Of a DNA stretch of 52,979 nucleotides, positions 1 through 51,029 are shown one piece after another. How positions within the stretch are numbered: position 1 is the first letter of the stretch; each line of letters opens with the position of its first letter. The notes below the pieces were generated by a model that made no database searches, was not told where the DNA came from, and worked only from the letters and a program-made list of their open reading frames with translations. The position numbers and the translations under genes were made by a program. Source of the stretch: Escherichia phage LF82-11. The DNA lies in the sequence record PV660454. One strand, 5' to 3'.

Positions 1-555
1 ATGTCACATGAAGAAGATAACGAATGGAAAAGCACGAGCGGCGCAGCCAATGAAGCGATCAAGAAAGGGAACTTTAAAGCACTGTATAACAAGAAGTATG
101 GCGACTTGTTTACGGTTTCAAAAAACCATGCTTTCACGCCTGAGCAGCTTTTTGATATGGCTGTTAAATACTTCACCTGGGCGGAAGAGAACGCGCTTAA
201 AGCAGCGGAAACGGCAAGCTTTCAGGGCATTGTGACTGAGAACCTCGTGCATAAGGTGCGCGTATTCACCCTTAACGGACTGTGCCTATTTTGCGGAATC
301 ACAGCCAACGCGATCCACAACTGGCGCAAGCAACCCGGATTTGGTGACGTGGTGGAGTTTATCGACAACGTGATCTATGAGCAGAAATTCCAGCTTGCGG
401 CTAACGGCATCATCAACGCCAGCTTTATTGGCAAGGAGATCGGCATTGATAAAGCGCCGGAAATTAACGTTGCAGCGACGGCGGCGGCTTCTGTTTCAGC
501 GCCAACCACTGAGGAAGTTAAAGACGCGGTGCGTGATATCCTGGGGGAATTATGA
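1..555 (+). CDS. putative terminase small subunit (start may lie upstream of window)
   Basis: 184-aa ORF immediately upstream of and overlapping (ATGA) the large terminase; position-based call. Confidence 0.4.
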   Translation: MSHEEDNEWKSTSGAANEAIKKGNFKALYNKKYGDLFTVSKNHAFTPEQLFDMAVKYFTWAEENALKAAETASFQGIVTENLVHKVRVFTLNGLCLFCGITANAIHNWRKQPGFGDVVEFIDNVIYEQKFQLAANGIINASFIGKEIGIDKAPEINVAATAAASVSAPTTEEVKDAVRDILGEL

Positions 556-2141
556 TCCAGTGGGAAGACTTGACGGCGGCGCATAAAGCCGCCATTAAAG
601 CGATGAGTGAAACATCGTTCGAGAAGATGCTGCGGATCTGGTTCCAGTTATGCCAGGCGCAGAAGTTCCAAAGCAACTGGCACTTTACCTATCTGTGCTG
701 GAAGGTTGAGCAGATCATCAAGGGTGAGGCTCAAAACGTGATATTCAACATCACGCCAGGATCGGGCAAAACTGAAATCTTCTCTATCCACATGCCTGTT
801 TACGGAATGCTGAAGAGTCCGAAGGTTAGAAACCTAAACCTTTCGTTTTCCGATAGCCTCGTGAAAGATAACGGCATTCGCACGCGTGAGATCATCGGCT
901 CTGACGAATTCCAGGAGCTATGGCCTTGCAAGATGGCGAAAGCCAGCGGTGGAGATATCACGGCGCTAAACGACAACCAGAAAGCGTGGCTTACGCTAAC
1001 CTCCCGCGCCATTGGTGGGCAGGTAACGGGTAAGCGTGGCGGTTACATGGATGATCCTAACAAGCCGTGGGAGTTTACCGGGATGTTGACGCTTGACGAC
1101 CCGGATAAGCCAAAGGATATGTTTTCCGCGATCAAGCGCAAGGCCGCGCACACCTTGCTGAAGAACACCGTGCGATCGCGGCGAATGACAGACCGCACGC
1201 CATGTGTTGTGGTTCAGCAGCGCCTACACGTCAACGATTCAACATGGTTCTTGATGAATGGCGGTATGGGCGGTATGAAGTTTGAGCAGGTTATTATTCC
1301 GGCTCTCGTAACTGAGGAATATAGAGACACGCTTCCTGACTGGTTGAAAGAAGAGTTTGACAATGACGTTTTATCGTCCGATCCGGTCTATATTGACGGC
1401 GTGGCGCATTACTCGTTTTGGCCTGCAAAGGAAAGCGCTGAAAGCCTGTTAGCTTTGCGCGAAGCTGATCTCTACACGTTTGAATCTCAGTACCAGCAGA
1501 AGCCGATCGCGCTTGGTGGTAACGCGTTTAAAGCGGAATGGTTCAAGTATTACGGAGAAAGCGAGAAAGCTGATTTTCCAGTGCCTGACCGCTTCGAATA
1601 CCTGTTTACAACGGCTGATACCGCTCAGAAGGCCGAAGAGATTCACGACTTTTCAGTTTTCGTGTTGTGGGGTAAATATCGCGATCGAATCTATTTCGTC
1701 GATGGGATTCGCGGGAAGTGGGAGGCACCTGATCTGGAAAAGGCCGCGCTGGGCTTCTACAACGAGTCATTCCTGAAGGCTAAGAAGATGAAGGTTGCGA
1801 TCAGAAAGGTTTACATCGAAGACAAGGCGAGCGGAACGGGATTGATTCAGTCGATTAACAAGAAATTGCCGATCGACATTACGCCAGTTCAGCGAAACAC
1901 GGATAAGGTAACGCGAGCTATGGATGCAGCGCCGATACTCAAGTCCGGGCGAGTTGTATTCCCTGATGATCACCCAATGCTTACAGAAATGGAGGCGGAG
2001 TTGGTGGGGTTCACCTTCGACGATAGTCACCCTCACGACGATATAGTTGATAACGTGGTTGACGCGGCAAACTTCGAAATGAACTTGCTTGATGATCCGG
2101 TAGAGCGCATGAAACGCTTAGCAGGAATGAAGAAACAGTGA
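552..2141 (+). CDS. terminase large subunit
   Basis: 529 aa; Walker A-like PGSGKT near N-terminus; directly upstream of portal. Confidence 0.8.
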   Translation: MIQWEDLTAAHKAAIKAMSETSFEKMLRIWFQLCQAQKFQSNWHFTYLCWKVEQIIKGEAQNVIFNITPGSGKTEIFSIHMPVYGMLKSPKVRNLNLSFSDSLVKDNGIRTREIIGSDEFQELWPCKMAKASGGDITALNDNQKAWLTLTSRAIGGQVTGKRGGYMDDPNKPWEFTGMLTLDDPDKPKDMFSAIKRKAAHTLLKNTVRSRRMTDRTPCVVVQQRLHVNDSTWFLMNGGMGGMKFEQVIIPALVTEEYRDTLPDWLKEEFDNDVLSSDPVYIDGVAHYSFWPAKESAESLLALREADLYTFESQYQQKPIALGGNAFKAEWFKYYGESEKADFPVPDRFEYLFTTADTAQKAEEIHDFSVFVLWGKYRDRIYFVDGIRGKWEAPDLEKAALGFYNESFLKAKKMKVAIRKVYIEDKASGTGLIQSINKKLPIDITPVQRNTDKVTRAMDAAPILKSGRVVFPDDHPMLTEMEAELVGFTFDDSHPHDDIVDNVVDAANFEMNLLDDPVERMKRLAGMKKQ

Positions 2142-2148
2142 TATAATC

Positions 2149-2176
2149 AGCCGGGCTAATAACCCGGCTTTTTTAT
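2149..2176 (+). terminator. rho-independent terminator after terminase
   Basis: GCCGGG/CCCGGC stem followed by T6. Confidence 0.5.
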
Positions 2177-2189
2177 TGAGGAAATCGCT

Positions 2190-3506
2190 ATGACTAAGCA
2201 GAAAAAGCCCGTCAAAATGGACTCGTACAACGAGACATTCAAGGGCGCAGGTACAGACCGCGCGCACAGCGGCCTAAACTATTATTACAACGTCACGCAG
2301 TTCTACATTGACAACCCGCTAGCCCGTAAGATTATCGACGTTATACCGGAGGAAATGGTTTTTCCTGGGTTCGGTATCGACGGCGAAACGGATGAGAAGG
2401 AATTTAAATCCCGATGGGATGCGCTGAAGATGAACGAGCAGATTGTTGAAGCGTTTGCGTGGGAACGCCTTTACGGTGGCTCAGCAATCGTGGCTGTGAT
2501 CAATGACCGCCGCGCGCTCACTTCGCCAGCCAAAGAGGGTGCCCCGCTTGAGTCTATCCGAGTGTACGAAAAGGAGCAGGTCAAGATCCAGACGCGAGAA
2601 ACCAACCCGCGTAATGTTCGCTACGGTATGCCGAAGACGTACACCATCAACCCTGGTGGCTCTATGCCTGAGTACGAGATCCACTATTCGCGAATCTACA
2701 TCAACGATGGTGATCGCGTGCCCGGTTCGGTTCGCCGTCAAAATGAGGGGTGGGGTGCTTCCGTTCTTTCTCGCGGAATGATTGATGCCATCACGGACTA
2801 TGACTACTGCGAAGAGCTTGCAACTCAGCTTTTACGCCGTAAGCAGCAAGCGGTGTGGAAGGCTCGCGGCCTGGCTGATTTATGCGATGATGATGAAGGG
2901 CGCTACGCGGCACGAATCAGGCTTGCTCAGGTTGACGATAACAGCGGCGTTGGGCGTGCGGTTGGTATTGATGCCACGGATGAAGAGTACGAAATCTTGA
3001 ACTCCGATATCAACGGCGTTGACGCTTTTCTTGATAAGAAAATGGATCGCATCGTGAACTATTCCGGCATCCATGAAATCATCCTGAAGAATAAGAACGT
3101 GGGCGGCGTTTCAGCGAGCCAAAACACGGCGCTTGAGACATTCTACAAGATGATTGACCGCCGCCGTAACGAGCGATACAGGCCGCTTCTGGAGTGGTTG
3201 TTGCCGTTCATGATTCAAGAGCAAGAATGGTCTATCCGGTTCGACCCTCTCTCTATGCCGTCAGAGAAAGAACAGGCTGAGACATTCGAGCGTTACACCA
3301 ATGCGGTTGACAAGCTGATCACGAATCAGGCTATTGACACCGAAGAGGCGCGCGATACACTTGAATCTGTTTCTGATGTGCTCAAGCTGAAATCCGGCTT
3401 GCCGAAGTTGCCGCCGCGCGATAAGACTGGCAAAGATCAGCAGGGTAAAGAGAAAGTAACCACACTGCCAAAAGGGGCTACAGATGAAGGTTCAGGGGAT
3501 AGCTAA
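2190..3506 (+). CDS. portal protein
   Basis: 438 aa, gene order terminase-portal-head morphogenesis. Confidence 0.7.
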   Translation: MTKQKKPVKMDSYNETFKGAGTDRAHSGLNYYYNVTQFYIDNPLARKIIDVIPEEMVFPGFGIDGETDEKEFKSRWDALKMNEQIVEAFAWERLYGGSAIVAVINDRRALTSPAKEGAPLESIRVYEKEQVKIQTRETNPRNVRYGMPKTYTINPGGSMPEYEIHYSRIYINDGDRVPGSVRRQNEGWGASVLSRGMIDAITDYDYCEELATQLLRRKQQAVWKARGLADLCDDDEGRYAARIRLAQVDDNSGVGRAVGIDATDEEYEILNSDINGVDAFLDKKMDRIVNYSGIHEIILKNKNVGGVSASQNTALETFYKMIDRRRNERYRPLLEWLLPFMIQEQEWSIRFDPLSMPSEKEQAETFERYTNAVDKLITNQAIDTEEARDTLESVSDVLKLKSGLPKLPPRDKTGKDQQGKEKVTTLPKGATDEGSGDS

Positions 3507-27073: not shown

Positions 27074-27532
27074 TCATTGATTAGCTTTTCGTGCTTTCAG
27101 TGTTTTCCAGGATGGTTGCTCCGGCTTGGTTTCTAACTCTTCCTTTCTCACCACGCGCAGCATGTGACGCTTTTTGCATCGGACTGTTAGCGGCTTGCCG
27201 TTGCCGTCGAATGACAGATCAGGGCGGCACCACGACGCGCGGAAACCTCCGCCATTTCGTTTATATGCGTTGTGCGCCAGTTGCGCGCCTCGCGCTGAAA
27301 TCATGCCGCGTTGCCGCCACTCATAAACAACCTGAAGCGAAACGCGCAATTCTTTCGCCAGCTTTGCAGGTGAGCCGTAGAATTCAAGGATGGTATCTAA
27401 TCTAGCCTTAAGCCCGGCCTTTACTTCGTCTCGTAAAACATAGTAACCTACTGGACGTTTTCGGCGCTTAGCGTCACTTCCGCGCTTCGTTCCATTGTTC
27501 CCATTAAGCGTGCGTTTATCTACGGTTTCCAT
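27074..27532 (-). CDS. basic HTH-type DNA-binding protein
   Basis: LAKELRVSLQVVYEWRQRG resembles a Cro/YdaS-like helix-turn-helix; Arg/Lys-rich. Confidence 0.35.
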   Translation of the reverse strand: METVDKRTLNGNNGTKRGSDAKRRKRPVGYYVLRDEVKAGLKARLDTILEFYGSPAKLAKELRVSLQVVYEWRQRGMISARGAQLAHNAYKRNGGGFRASWCRPDLSFDGNGKPLTVRCKKRHMLRVVRKEELETKPEQPSWKTLKARKANQ

Positions 27533-30180: not shown

Positions 30181-30894
30181 ATGATTGACGAGAACGATAA
30201 AGACACAATGACGTTTGAAGAAATGGAGCACGGCTTGTATTCAACTCGCGCACTGGTTGCCGGGTGCCACTACCAGCCAGTGAAGCCGGAAACGTACTAT
30301 CGCGTTTCAGGGCATCGTTACGTTGGCAGCAAAACGCCTGACGTTGTGCGTGACTTGTGGGCAACCGATCGCGAATTGATTTCGTGGATGGAAGAGCGTT
30401 ACGGAAAGTATGATATCGACGCAGCGGCAAGCGCGAATAATGCCGTGTGCGAAAAGTTCTACGACGAGCAACGTAACTGCCTGAAAATCTGGTGGGGAAA
30501 GAATAAGCACATCTGGCTTAACCCTCCGTACTCACATCCTGATCCATTCGTGAAGAAGGCCATTGAGCAGATGGAGCATGACAACCAGATTGATATGCTT
30601 CTTCCTGGCGACAACTCAACGGCATGGTTTGCAGAGGCGCGCAAAAACGCTGCTGAGATCATCTGGATTGAGGCTGAGATCACAGAGATTGACCAGCAGG
30701 AATATTGCCGAACCGGGCGACTCGCTTTTATTTCCGGCCTAACCGGAAAGCCAGTTGACGGCAACAACAAAGGGAGTGTGATTTTCATCATGCGCAAACT
30801 GAAAGAGGGTGAGACGCAACAAACACACTATGTGAGCGTTTCTGAGATCTGCCCAGGCGTAAGCCGCAAGAAACCACGTAAACGGAGCGTTTAA
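30181..30894 (+). CDS. dam: DNA N6-adenine methyltransferase (phage Dam family)
   Basis: 237 aa with NPPY motif (LNPPYS), as in T1-type Dam. Confidence 0.7.
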   Translation: MIDENDKDTMTFEEMEHGLYSTRALVAGCHYQPVKPETYYRVSGHRYVGSKTPDVVRDLWATDRELISWMEERYGKYDIDAAASANNAVCEKFYDEQRNCLKIWWGKNKHIWLNPPYSHPDPFVKKAIEQMEHDNQIDMLLPGDNSTAWFAEARKNAAEIIWIEAEITEIDQQEYCRTGRLAFISGLTGKPVDGNNKGSVIFIMRKLKEGETQQTHYVSVSEICPGVSRKKPRKRSV

Positions 30895-33516: not shown

Positions 33517-33594
33517 CTTCTTTTTTATTCCGAGCCGGGTTACAATCCTTTTACTAACTAAATATTGACATTCAAAGAGTTTAAGGATCTGATC

Positions 33595-33813
33595 ATGAGG
33601 GAAGTAATCAATGCAGTAACCAGCGCCACAGGCGGCGCGTCACTAACCGGAGCGGCTACAGGTCAGTTAGTTATTGCTGGCGCAACGTTCGTGCTATTCG
33701 TTGGCTTCGGTGTTTGGGGTGCTTACTGGAAATACCAGGACAGCAAAGCAATTCGTGAAGCCCTCAAATCCGGCAATCTGGAAGAGGCGATCAAACTAAA
33801 CGGGAAAAAGTAA
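33595..33813 (+). CDS. holin (single-TM, pinholin-like)
   Basis: 72 aa, one TM helix, immediately upstream of SAR endolysin; ATG 33595 with AAGGA RBS (track start is TTG). Confidence 0.5.
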
Positions 33814-36842: not shown

Positions 36843-36870
36843 GTTAAAAACTCCTTGTTTGGTTGCTCAA

Positions 36871-37363: not shown

Positions 37364-37406
37364 ATAATAACAAAACCCGCCGAAGCGGGTTTAACAAAAA
37401 GTGCTA
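37364..37406 (-). promoter_or_regulatory. box-promoter module (minus)
   Basis: TAGCACTTTTTGTTA on minus strand, 22 bp, TATTAT; box starts at stop of upstream gene. Confidence 0.5.
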
Positions 37407-38096
37407 TTTGTAACGGTTGTACTGGAAGACGGCGCGAGCGAATCCGCGCGGAGTTAGGGAGCGGAGTTGCTTAGTCTTCGCAGACTTTCCGCCGAGGAAC
37501 TTCCAGCCCCAAAAGAAATGCAAGCCTTCCTCTTTTGGTAATGGTGCCTTCTCTGGCTCGCGGAAACCGTTGCCATGCCAGATGCAAGTTTTTTTCGTGT
37601 AGCCGTCTCGCAGTGGCATTTTGGGGTGCCAGGAGCCTTCACGCGCATCGACGTATTGCCCGAAGTCACGAGGATGGAAATAGAATTTAGGCTTGCCCAG
37701 GTTTTCCGGCTTTGACATTGCCCCTACCGGGTTTTCAATCATCCACGGGATCTGGTAGCGTTCGCCAATCTCAATGACAACCTTTGCACACTCAAGCGCA
37801 TATTTCATTTCGGCGTCGTCTCTCTCGTGCTGCGCGCCAGATTGGGCAAACAGAGTGCAATCCGGGAAGCCAAAAACGATATCAGGCTTGGGCAACCCCA
37901 GGATCTCAGCCTTTGTGATGAAATCCTTATCAATCCACGTATTCACATATCGGATATTTGGGTGATTCATCTTCACGGCGTACTCGCCATGATTGCCGGA
38001 GTCAGCGTTGAAGCATATCACCTGACAACCAACCTCAGCCCAAGGCAATCCCATAATGCCGGAGCCGTCAAACAGCGACCATACAACACGCTTCAT
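37404..38096 (-). CDS. compact C5-cytosine methyltransferase-fold protein
   Basis: FDGSG (motif I-like), GFPDC (IV-like), ENP (VI-like), RSLTPRGFARA (IX/X-like); only 230 aa so little room for a target-recognition domain. Confidence 0.5.
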   Translation of the reverse strand: MKRVVWSLFDGSGIMGLPWAEVGCQVICFNADSGNHGEYAVKMNHPNIRYVNTWIDKDFITKAEILGLPKPDIVFGFPDCTLFAQSGAQHERDDAEMKYALECAKVVIEIGERYQIPWMIENPVGAMSKPENLGKPKFYFHPRDFGQYVDAREGSWHPKMPLRDGYTKKTCIWHGNGFREPEKAPLPKEEGLHFFWGWKFLGGKSAKTKQLRSLTPRGFARAVFQYNRYK

Positions 38097-40209: not shown

Positions 40210-40252
40210 ATAATAGCAAAAGCCAGATCGGGAGTTTTAGCAAAAAGTGCTA
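40210..40252 (-). promoter_or_regulatory. box-promoter module (minus)
   Basis: TAGCACTTTTTGCTA on minus strand, 22 bp, TATTAT. Confidence 0.5.
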
Positions 40253-40314
40253 TTTTCCCGATCCGGCGCGCGGAACATCTGCCCCATGGTTTGGGGTGTT
40301 AACCAGTCAGAGCG

Positions 40315-41358: not shown

Positions 41359-41598
41359 TTACCCCTTGATAGTCAGGCCGAAAGCCTCAACCAGAATGTC
41401 ACTTGCAGCGTGCATTTCGCAACGAGCAACCTCACGGTCATCAAAATTCTCTACAGCGTACATCACAACACCACGAGCCTGATCAGCTTCTACAAACTGG
41501 TTGCAACGGTCATTCAGTTCTTTCGCTAACTCAGCGTCAAAATCAGCCGTTACGCCTTCGATAAACTCCGCCTCGGTGATGATGTTCATGTAGCGCAT
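41359..41598 (-). CDS. strongly acidic small protein, first gene of leftward early operon
   Basis: 79 aa with about 19 Asp/Glu versus about 7 Lys/Arg; RBS GAGGAAA. Confidence 0.35.
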   Translation of the reverse strand: MRYMNIITEAEFIEGVTADFDAELAKELNDRCNQFVEADQARGVVMYAVENFDDREVARCEMHAASDILVEAFGLTIKG

Positions 41599-41629
41599 TG
41601 CTGTTTCCTCAGTTCGTTTCGTTGAGATA

Positions 41630-41672
41630 ACTATAGCCGAAACATCCTGAGTGGTTTTAGCAAAAAGTGCTA
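41630..41672 (-). promoter_or_regulatory. box-promoter module (minus), leftward early promoter
   Basis: TAGCACTTTTTGCTA on minus strand, 22 bp, TATAGT. Confidence 0.5.
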
Positions 41673-41690
41673 TTGATTCGATTTATCCAA

Positions 41691-41748
41691 TTATTCCATT
41701 ATTCCAACTATTCTGGAATATTCCTGAATAACCGAATATCTGGAATAG
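41691..41748. repeat. GGAATA/TATTCC iteron cluster including 10-bp palindrome GGAATATTCC
   Basis: TTATTCCA x2 direct, GGAATATTCC palindrome, further GGAATA copies. Confidence 0.55.
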
Positions 41749-41793
41749 TCAAAATGACTATGGCTCTCCGTTCGTTTTAGCGAACAAACGTTC

Positions 41794-41818
41794 GATGTGA
41801 TGTGATGTGATGTGAATG
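41794..41818. repeat. tandem pentamer repeat (GATGT)x4 plus one imperfect copy
   Basis: four perfect tandem GATGT then GAATG. Confidence 0.6.
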
Positions 41819-41831
41819 AGGGTGAGGAGGC

Positions 41832-41845
41832 GATCAGATCTGATC
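41832..41845. promoter_or_regulatory. 14-bp perfect palindrome GATCAGATCTGATC with three GATC sites
   Basis: perfect palindrome, flanked by GGTGAGG/CCTCACC inverted repeat. Confidence 0.6.
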
Positions 41846-41954
41846 CCGAAACTTTTTCCCTCACCGCACGATTTGCTAATGAATTGTCGTGCCTGTAGTT
41901 GTATGTTGTGTTTTACGTTTTCCGTGGAAATCGGTACGCGCTACTACGCGGAAT

Positions 41955-42060
41955 AACAATGTTATGCTTTATATATAGATATATAAGTATATATAAAATA
42001 AAGGTTTTTTATTATATATATTATCTAATTTCATAACACTTTATAACGTGTTGTGTTTGT
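41955..42060. other. AT-rich tract (possible DNA unwinding element)
   Basis: about 100 bp of TATATA-rich sequence in the divergent intergenic region. Confidence 0.4.
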
Positions 42061-42247
42061 TCCGCCGGACGCGGAGTGATTGATATGTTTCGCGGCCTAT
42101 TTATGCCTATATTGTGAAATATGGGTAGGGGGATATATACCCCTCCGAAATCCGCAACAAACGCTTAATACGCACTACAACCCAGCAGGAATGCACCATG
42201 TAGAGGAGATTTTGTTGATAATGGCAATAATCGACACAAATTAATCT

Positions 42248-42276
42248 TGACTACAATTAAGCTTTTCCGCATTATG
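42248..42276 (+). promoter_or_regulatory. sigma70-like rightward early promoter
   Basis: TTGACT, 17-bp spacer, CATTAT. Confidence 0.45.
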
Positions 42277-42307
42277 GCGGCTCAACCAATCAGATGAGGT
42301 ATCACCC

Positions 42308-42805
42308 ATGACACTTGCAGAAGTATTGCGCTATATGGCAACCGAAGCCATGAAATCCCCTGAGAAGGAGATCACCGTGCCAGTGTGGCAAATCCTGGTT
42401 CAGGCACACAATCTGGACGCTGACGAGCGCCGCGCATTACAGGCAGACTTTGACAAGCGCGTTGAGCTGGTAGCAAGTGAGAAGCGCCTGACCAACTCGT
42501 ACATCACCAACACCTGCAACCGCATGAAGGAAATGATCGCGGCTGACCTATCCATCACCACAAAGCGTGGCGAGGACGACGGCGGGAATCGGACGCTCAC
42601 CCTGGGCGTTAAGCCCGGCGCAATGAAGCTGGGCAGTCGGAGCAAGTCGGAGAACATCGCGGCGAAGAATGCAGTGCAGGATTTTGCCCGGCGCATCATG
42701 GAGATTGCCCCAGCACTAGATAGCCTGAGCGATGATCGCGTTGCTGGTGCCGTCGATGGCGTGCGCATGATGAAAGAGCTGATTGCCAGGGAGGCCGGAC
42801 TATGA
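42308..42805 (+). CDS. hypothetical protein, first gene of rightward early operon
   Basis: 165 aa, RBS GAGG; flanked upstream and downstream by GGAATA iterons. Confidence 0.35.
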   Translation: MTLAEVLRYMATEAMKSPEKEITVPVWQILVQAHNLDADERRALQADFDKRVELVASEKRLTNSYITNTCNRMKEMIAADLSITTKRGEDDGGNRTLTLGVKPGAMKLGSRSKSENIAAKNAVQDFARRIMEIAPALDSLSDDRVAGAVDGVRMMKELIAREAGL

Positions 42806-45480: not shown

Positions 45481-45846
45481 ATGAAAGTTAAATGCATTAG
45501 TTCAGACGTTTTGCTTGATGGTTACTACACCCCAGGTAGAGTCTACCGATTAAGGCGAGAAAGGGGCAAAAGCTATAGAACCGTTAAATCAAACAGAGGC
45601 GTTGATCTTGGTGTTATCCACGACCCATTAAAAAGAGGTCGGTTTTTCGTTGCTGGATTTGAACGTTGTGTGTTTGATTCGGCTCCGCACCGATTCGTGA
45701 AGCGCAACCAAAGCGCCGCGCTGGGGCAGATTGAGATCGACTATACGCGATGCAAGCGCAGCATTCGCAATCAGGCTCGCAACATCGCAAAAGAGCACTT
45801 CTCGTGCGGCAAGCTTGAGAAGATTGCGCGAGGCTATAAGCGATAG
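45481..45846 (+). CDS. paralogue-family protein (MKVKC)
   Basis: start moved to ATG 45481 with GGAG RBS; MKVKCISS...YTPGRVYRL. Confidence 0.4.
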   Translation: MKVKCISSDVLLDGYYTPGRVYRLRRERGKSYRTVKSNRGVDLGVIHDPLKRGRFFVAGFERCVFDSAPHRFVKRNQSAALGQIEIDYTRCKRSIRNQARNIAKEHFSCGKLEKIARGYKR

Positions 45847-45886
45847 CACTTTTTGCTAAAACTTCCGCAAGGGCATTTGATATAGT
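45844..45886 (+). promoter_or_regulatory. box-promoter module
   Basis: TAGCACTTTTTGCTA, 22 bp, TGaTATAGT in loop of AAGGGCA/TGCCCTT hairpin. Confidence 0.5.
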
Positions 45887-50560: not shown

Positions 50561-50989
50561 ATGAAATTACGTTGCACATTCCTTGAGCCAGCTTTCGCAA
50601 AAGCTCTGGCTGAGTTCTACACCATCGGCAAAACTTACGCCGCATCCATCAAGCCGGGATCAAAGGTTGGCGCTGTGCTGGTGGAGTCAAACGAAGGCAA
50701 TGAAGGCGATCAGCTTGCAGCAGTTCCGAGCCGCTCAGGGTTCGAGGTTCAAATTAAGAACCAAATTCCGATCGCAAAGTTCGAGGTTGTTGGCAAGCGT
50801 GCGGTGAAGCTTGTTAAGACTGAGAAGCGCGTAACGCTGAAACTTGATGGCGTGGGGAAATCAGATAAGCGCCGATTCCGCCGTGTTTGCCGCCAGTATC
50901 GAAAGTTGAAATTCATCAACCCTGGATTCTATTATGATCTGGAATCCGATCGCCACATGGCTAAACTTGCGCGACATCACCGCCGATAG
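50561..50989 (+). CDS. paralogue-family protein (MKLRC), basic C-terminus
   Basis: MKLRCTF...FYTIGKTYAAS; Arg/Lys-rich C-terminal tail. Confidence 0.4.
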   Translation: MKLRCTFLEPAFAKALAEFYTIGKTYAASIKPGSKVGAVLVESNEGNEGDQLAAVPSRSGFEVQIKNQIPIAKFEVVGKRAVKLVKTEKRVTLKLDGVGKSDKRRFRRVCRQYRKLKFINPGFYYDLESDRHMAKLARHHRR

Positions 50990-51029
50990 CACTTTTTGCT
51001 AAAACTCGAAATCGGGGTTGCGATATAGT
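50987..51029 (+). promoter_or_regulatory. box-promoter module
   Basis: TAGCACTTTTTGCTA, 22 bp, TATAGT in loop of GGGGTT/AACCCC hairpin. Confidence 0.5.

Follow-up and report, generated by a model that had tools for sequence, protein, structure and literature searches.

Phage P1 provides the textbook case of DNA packaging under Dam methylation control. Its pac site contains seven hexamer repeats in a 4+3 arrangement, which carry the methylation sites and flank the cut inside the pacA gene. Cleavage of P1 pac, which involves PacA and PacB together with IHF and HU, is reportedly regulated by adenine methylation, a finding said to be that of Sternberg and Coulby in 1990. The pac site of P22, in contrast, is located within gene 3 and is free of GATC repeats. 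Clustered GATCs are also found at sites controlled by SeqA and Dam, such as the 13-mers of oriC, the dnaA promoter and the GATC heptamers of P1 oriR, and SeqA-type recognition follows a spacing rule, by which two or more GATCs must share one helical face over no more than about 31 bp. T1-like phages use headful packaging from a pac site (PMC11447400, PMC5238451). In the literature, no T1-like pac site is defined at the sequence level, and no described T1 pac sequence was found.

The window, that is the whole stretch of 52,979 bp analysed here, is identical in sequence to Escherichia phages LF82-12 and LF82-40 (PV660455 and PV660462, 52,979 bp each). LF82-12 is a virulent phage that was isolated on E. 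coli LF82 and represents a new genus cluster in the T1-like family Drexlerviridae (PMC12509680). The terminase genes are located on the plus strand. The small subunit (1–555), the presumed reader of the pac signal, is P22 gp3-like (PF16677 GP3_package, E 2.4e-14), and the large subunit (552–2141; annotation of PV660455) is the presumed nuclease for the first cut. An earlier inspection of the DNA, hereafter the sequence-only reading, had proposed that the phage encodes its own Dam-family methylase. This was confirmed for the plus-strand gene at 30181–30894, which encodes an N6-adenine methyltransferase of the T1 type (PF05869, E 5e-59) with 67% identity to T1 Dam (ST20). Another gene, on the minus strand (37404–38096), is annotated as a DNA methyltransferase and has relatives labelled C-5 cytosine methylase or dcm; it gave no Pfam match at E ≤ 0.001. 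The largest non-coding stretch of the genome is a 709-bp intergenic region (41599–42307) between divergent early operons. To its left, a leftward operon of small genes starts at 41598, and the first gene of the rightward operon, at 42308, encodes a DUF7174 protein.

Within this region, three Dam sites (GATC at 41832, 41837 and 41842) follow each other with a period of 5 bp in GATCAGATCTGATC (41832–41845), the local sequence being ...GATGTGATGTGATGTGATGTGAATGAGGGTGAGGAGGC-GATCAGATCTGATC-CCGAAACTTTTTCCCTCACCGCAC.... The element is an array of GATCW pentamers and, as the sequence-only reading had recognized, a perfect 14-bp palindrome, with a BglII site at its centre. Its outer GATCs are 10 bp apart and therefore on the same helical face. 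In all 52,979 bp this is the only cluster of three GATCs within 20 bp, compared with 0.04 such clusters per genome expected under an order-1 Markov model and 0.12 in order-3 Markov simulations. The local enrichment in GATC that had been suspected thus exists for the triple, but the 709-bp region as a whole is not GATC-rich. It contains three GATCs, all of them in the palindrome, against a genome-wide rate of one per 152 bp (349 sites in the window versus about 232–233 expected from dinucleotide shuffles), and there is no further GATC for about 350 bp leftward or about 525 bp rightward (nearest sites at 41481 and 42370). The dyad itself is unexceptional. Four perfect 14-bp palindromes were seen in the genome and about four were expected from Markov simulations, and given GATCnGATCnGATC, complementary spacers suffice for palindromy, which therefore has a chance of one in four. 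Altogether, the clustering of the GATCs is beyond chance, and the palindromy as well as the inverted repeat framing it (see below) are at chance level.

Perfect palindromes of at least 12 bp were rarer in the whole window than in Markov simulations (8 versus about 15). The right-hand 9 bp of the palindrome recur as GATCTGATC at 33586–33594, in an intergenic gap and abutting the start codon of the holin gene at 33595. A search of IMG/VR for the exact 14-mer returned 95 scattered matches, none listed as T1-like, which is about the chance level for a 14-mer. The element has precisely the appearance of an EcoRV site into which a BglII linker (CAGATCTG) has been cloned. A cloning artefact was nevertheless rejected, because six independent environmental assemblies carry the 14-mer, one of them with a fourth GATC.

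The locus resembles P1 pac in that both P1 and the window phage are headful-packaging phages encoding their own Dam, and in that short GATC-containing repeats are clustered at the packaging start, or in the window phage at a candidate start. On the minus strand the first GATC of the element reads TGATCG, which corresponds to one form of the P1 hexamer (TGATCA or TGATCG). In contrast to the hexamers of P1, however, the window contains a single array of three to four pentamers in a non-coding spacer, and several relatives of the window phage have no GATC cluster. Since the 4+3 architecture is absent and the small terminase subunit is P22 gp3-like instead of PacA/PacB, the element, judged from its sequence, lies outside the P1 pac family. 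Its small terminase is in the same Pfam family as that of P22, and 8 nt of the P22 pac core AAGATTTATCTG recur in the spacer as GATTTATC at 41680–41687; the ATC part of this octamer varies among close relatives, and in 709 bp a match of this length carries no significance by itself. In MSK (L226, about 713–721), SU57 (L240, about 340–348) and other Rtp-like phages, AGATTTATG is found at this position, just after the conserved repeat. Our preferred reading, to which we assign a probability of roughly 35%, is that the element may be part of a pac packaging-initiation module and possibly uses methylation to gate the first cut, in the manner of P1 pac.

Close relatives were located through a search with the DUF7174 protein against a protein database with Logan contigs, which yielded homologues of 88–95% identity; peptide-pattern searches in IMG/VR and JGI metagenomes found no close relatives. 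The intergenic region was recovered from six Logan contigs (four complete, two partial) and aligned with the window, giving seven sequences. None of the seven differs in GATCAGATCTGATC. In one relative (L228), a fourth GATC unit, GATCAGATCTGATCAGATC, follows where the others read on into GATCAGATAA. Directly to the left of the palindrome lies a conserved purine-rich motif, GTGAATGAGGGTGAGGAGGC (41812–41831, plus strand), which overlaps an invariant run of 24 columns (41822–41845). The last column of this run is also the last base of the palindrome, and beyond it comes the interior part of the intergenic region that varies most (41846–41864), with up to 12 of 20 alignment columns variable at a time. 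The motif is preceded by, and partly overlaps, four GATGT pentamer repeats followed by GAATGA (41794–41819, plus strand). Copy numbers among the close relatives are three or four for GATC and three to five for GATGT. From these sequences, the evolving unit looks like a GATCW pentamer array beside a GATGT pentamer array rather than a dyad. The invariance of the 14 columns of the palindrome says little about function, because 81.5% of the intergenic columns are invariant at this distance anyway.

According to the sequence-only reading, the palindrome is framed by a GGTGAGG/CCTCACC inverted repeat. Both arms exist (41821–41827 and 41859–41865, plus strand), but the gaps to the palindrome measure 4 and 13 nt, so that the arms are asymmetric around it, and a 7-bp flanking inverted repeat is present at about 2% of random sites. 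The left arm is invariant in the relatives, whereas the right arm reads CGTCACC, CGTCACA or CTCCACC there. The frame was therefore judged fortuitous and rejected as a real stem, as one arm changes while the other stays fixed. The same observation bears on the idea that the palindrome, nested in this stem, forms a hairpin or cruciform acting as a terminator or recombination site. As single-stranded DNA, a 91-nt stretch folds with −11.7 kcal/mol (z = −2.25; 6 of 200 shuffles equally good), which is only mildly better than expected, and the missing conservation and compensatory change in the outer stem, that is the absent covariation, largely refutes such a structure. Moreover, a scan of the site found no terminator-like G+C stem with a T-run, no terminator is needed because the flanking genes diverge, and Rfam gave no credible match (a sub-threshold GcvB hit of 15.5 bits against a gathering score of 42 bits was taken as chance). 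We consider this structure highly improbable.

A perfect dyad in a divergent control region that is invariant in close relatives could also be the operator of a dimeric phage DNA-binding protein acting independently of methylation, for example the regulator encoded at 27074–27532 or a small early protein. Yet no second copy with fewer than three mismatches occurs in the genome, and a promoter and terminator scan of the region found a sole promoter-like site, at 42247–42275, so that the palindrome overlaps no promoter. The dyad is asymmetrically extended in the relative with four GATCs and lost in Vilniusvirus, where the corresponding GATC triple, GATCAGATCCGATC, is non-palindromic. Palindromy is also largely automatic once three GATCs are present with this spacing. 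An operator thus appears very unlikely.

The surroundings of the element are those of the T1, TLS and Rtp-like pac regions, with which the window shares the divergent region, the order of modules and the conserved 21-nt repeat at the left. Like other T1-like pac modules, it has a divergent region about 8–11 kb upstream of the terminase genes, with the ATAGCAC repeat at its left and with GATG/GTGA repeats. From left to right, Drexlerviridae spacers contain the T1-like intergenic repeat, lineage-specific iterons, a GATG/GTGA block and an AT-rich TATATA block. In the window, the first of these modules is a copy of the direct repeat known from T1-like intergenic regions (minus strand, ATAGCAC...TTGCTAA; 41657–41673), which lies 59 bp upstream of the leftward operon's first gene. 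Next come the iteron-like ATTATTCC/GGAATA repeats (41690–41747), which occur in both orientations, are nearly invariant in the close relatives and recur at the corresponding position in Vilniusvirus, T1 and Phc. The GATG/GTGA repeat blocks occupy corresponding positions in T1, TLS, Vilniusvirus and the MSK/SU57 group. A 72-bp AT-rich block (41960–42031), the longest invariant run in the alignment and a candidate DNA-unwinding or origin element, has TATATA-rich counterparts in T1, TLS, MSK and Vilniusvirus. The GATC cluster is situated to the right of the GATG repeats in LF82-12 and to their left in T1, TLS and Vilniusvirus, and the Drexlerviridae spacer as a whole gives the impression of short modules shuffled into a mosaic.

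The intergenic repeat at the left edge was examined across the genome as the 17-nt motif TTAGCAAAAAGTGCTAT, of which the window contains 20 copies with at most three mismatches (0.18 expected), among them those at 41657–41673, 40237–40253, 45843–45859 and 50986–51002. In this form, nearly all copies are antisense to the local genes, 55–75 bp before the next start and often overlapping the preceding stop codon; read as ATAGCAC...TTGCTAA, the 20 copies are oriented with transcription. A role of TTAGCAAAAAGTGCTAT as a rightward promoter was ruled out, since the orientation of the 20 copies assigns it to the leftward operon as the known T1-like intergenic repeat. The 21-nt repeat was described for TLS as aaATAGCACnnnTTGnTAAAA, and its function is still unknown (PMC11447400).

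Other palindromic sequences are present in these spacers. AGGGGGATATATACCCCT at 42127–42144 is nearly invariant in the close relatives, with one substitution in the relative that has four GATCs, and the related GGTATACATATACCCCTCC is found at the equivalent place in Vilniusvirus (HazelMika; L101, about 2040–2060), with the AT-rich block on one side and the rightward promoter-like site on the other. An inverted repeat, TAGACCGATTGGTCTA, lies in Vilniusvirus (L101/L102) roughly where LF82-12 carries the GATC palindrome, and is duplicated just after the conserved repeat in TLS (L225, 786–822) and Stevie (L003).

The genome ends of four phages (T1, TLS, MSK and SU57), either mapped or annotated, fall into the GATG/GTGA block. 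The T1 end, given by the start of the record with a repeat_region at 1..2800, is 20 nt to the right of GATCatgattGATC. For TLS, the record starts 19 nt to the right of GATC-N9-GATC-N7-GATC; pac was located there approximately by restriction mapping, and the exact base was picked for its resemblance to P22 pac. PhageTerm placed the MSK end at 36,862, just after GTGAATGAAAGATGGATGGA, and the SU57 end, a record junction derived from PhageTerm and a coverage step, is 17 nt further right than that of MSK. GTGAATGAAAGATGGATGGA of MSK and SU57, after which their ends come, was aligned by MAFFT with the purine-rich motif GTGAATGAGGGTGAGGAGGC of the window. In this alignment, which was anchored on the conserved repeat, the two ends correspond to window positions 41831/2 and 41848, on either side of the palindrome. 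Measured from the conserved repeat, the end comes after 166–184 nt in MSK and SU57, and the palindrome of the window after 175 nt. At the aligned spot, a GATC cluster is missing from both MSK and SU57, and the MSK module has no GATC at all.

The GATC clusters of the Dam-encoding relatives adjoin the same GATG/GTGA block that bears these ends, and therefore point to packaging initiation. In LF82-12 (6.6 GATC per kb) and TLS (5.6 per kb), the only triple in the genome within 20 bp and 32 bp, respectively, is located inside the module. HazelMika (6.7 per kb) has there its tightest cluster, four sites in 26 bp (GATC-N8-GATCaGATCcGATC), which is identical to the LF82-12 element at 13 of 14 positions and non-palindromic. 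T1 (4.8 per kb) has in the module one of only two GATC pairs within 10 bp in its genome. All four phages encode Dam. MSK (L236, MW057918), for which tblastn found no Dam homologue, has 1.46 GATC per kb (66 sites versus 166 expected) and no cluster. First-order Markov resampling of 300-bp modules gave clustering probabilities of 0.0125 for LF82-12, 0.0027 for HazelMika, 0.045 for TLS and 0.16 for T1, and a Fisher-style combination over about ten GATC-rich, presumably Dam-encoding lineages gave a P of only about 0.01–0.02. The total GATC count was not enriched in the 300-bp module of any lineage. Close relatives of T1 have GATT at the GATC positions of T1, and the spacers of Hanriver-like phages and Phc contain zero or one GATC. 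Because the cluster is not universal, GATC is not essential for pac recognition across the family.

Drexlerviridae comprise GATC-rich and GATC-poor genomes; Dam was found in all four GATC-rich genomes checked and was absent from the one GATC-poor genome checked (MSK). The Rtp-like IMG/VR loci L186 and L209 have 0.6–0.8 GATC per kb. GATC is over-represented in LF82-12, T1 (NC_005833) and TLS (NC_009540), yet close pairs are depleted in these genomes. We counted pairs within 20 bp, derived expectations from an order-3 Markov null and ranked the depletion of GATC among about 130 tetramers. LF82-12 had 19 pairs versus 37.6 expected (rank 2 of 133), T1 had 7 versus 18.9 (rank 1 of 134) and TLS had 12 versus 25.1 (rank 4 of 129), whereas HazelMika (OL539457) showed no depletion (37 versus 37.6, rank 71 of 131). 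Judged against this null model, the data suggest that selection acts on GATC spacing. The genome-wide depletion of close pairs makes a single tight cluster more conspicuous.

The array could nevertheless be a neutral by-product of its setting. GAT-containing pentamers abound in the module, so that slippage and point mutation could generate GATC arrays in the absence of selection; the GATCW array would then be a variant of these pentamers, methylated like any other GATC but without a methylation-specific role, and its conservation would reflect the slow divergence of the whole module. The array stands beside the four GATGT repeats with the same 5-bp period, and the variable copy numbers of both arrays, the GATT variants in the T1 relatives, the unenriched GATC totals of the modules and the high proportion of invariant columns are all in line with such an origin, as is the lack of any cluster here in several GATC-rich and presumably Dam-encoding lineages. 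What argues against it is the repeated location. The tightest cluster, or in T1 one of only two close pairs, is found in the same module of about 300 bp in four Dam-encoding genomes from three mutually unalignable lineages. It is unexpected under neutrality because close GATC pairs are depleted elsewhere in three of these genomes, and clustering probabilities of 0.003–0.045 were obtained with local composition allowed for. We regard a neutral origin as doubtful, but as a serious contender.

The sequence-only reading had suggested that the element times origin firing or early promoter activity through its methylation state, with SeqA or a similar protein as the sensor of hemimethylated DNA. The locus does share features with the sites that are under such control. 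Its outer GATCs comply with the spacing rule of SeqA-type recognition, the phage has a dam gene, and the element lies between divergent early operons in a region with origin-like anatomy, where ATTCC/GGAAT iteron-like repeats on both sides of the cluster accompany the invariant AT-rich block. The genome-wide avoidance of close GATC pairs would also fit the evasion of a pair sensor except at one site. However, nothing ties the cluster to an origin or an early promoter. It lies 115 bp from the AT-rich block (more than 200 bp in T1, TLS and Vilniusvirus) and instead tracks the block of GATG repeats in which ends were mapped. The DnaA-box-like sequences in the region all have one mismatch, the scan detected no sigma-70-like promoter consensus overlapping the cluster, and the literature contains no defined origin for any T1-like phage. 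Hence, timing of origin or promoter activity seems unlikely, and packaging is, on the sequence features described, the more likely role of the GATC cluster. As to the iterons, two further copies (41926–41955) directly adjoin the AT-rich block; iterons to the left of an invariant AT-rich block resemble the anatomy of an origin, and the repeat sequence is lineage-dependent (for example CGGAGGATT in Phc).

In the packaging reading, the palindrome would be the core of a short GATCW pentamer array at the right-hand edge of a conserved pac module in a headful-packaging phage, the module consisting, from left to right, of the intergenic repeat, the ATTATTCC iterons, the GATGT pentamers, the GTGAATGA-purine motif and the GATC array. 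Terminase is predicted to make its first cut inside the array or no more than about 20 bp beyond its right end (about 41831–41865), and packaging would then run rightwards, toward the terminase genes. We infer that the LF82-12 end lies here, that the terminase contacts the array and that methylation is relevant there. Just after replication the array would be un- or hemimethylated, and later fully methylated. Since every pentamer contains a Dam site and the phage supplies the Dam enzyme itself, this state probably modulates terminase binding or cutting, and the effect would be to limit or time pac cleavage in a manner similar to P1 pac. The combination of Dam sites, a phage Dam and the P1 precedent leads us to favour methylation-dependent recognition or cutting of pac, and a methylation-sensitive element is plausible.

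The avoidance of close GATC pairs allows a more far-reaching proposal, which we consider speculative and rather improbable. Dam-encoding T1-like phages may spread their GATCs to escape a host sensor of hemimethylated pairs, such as SeqA, and may keep one array at the packaging start as a licence, so that the first cut would be made only after full Dam methylation of the concatemer. Such a P1-like timer, working with a P22-type terminase, would have evolved independently in several Drexlerviridae lineages. If the array is a mere by-product of the repeats, it is an ordinary finding. If methylation does control the first cut, the Dam-controlled packaging logic of P1 would have arisen independently with a different terminase family, and the Dam genes of many Drexlerviridae would gain a concrete role. 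This would also bear on the transduction frequency and on the engineering of phages collected for therapy against E. coli LF82.
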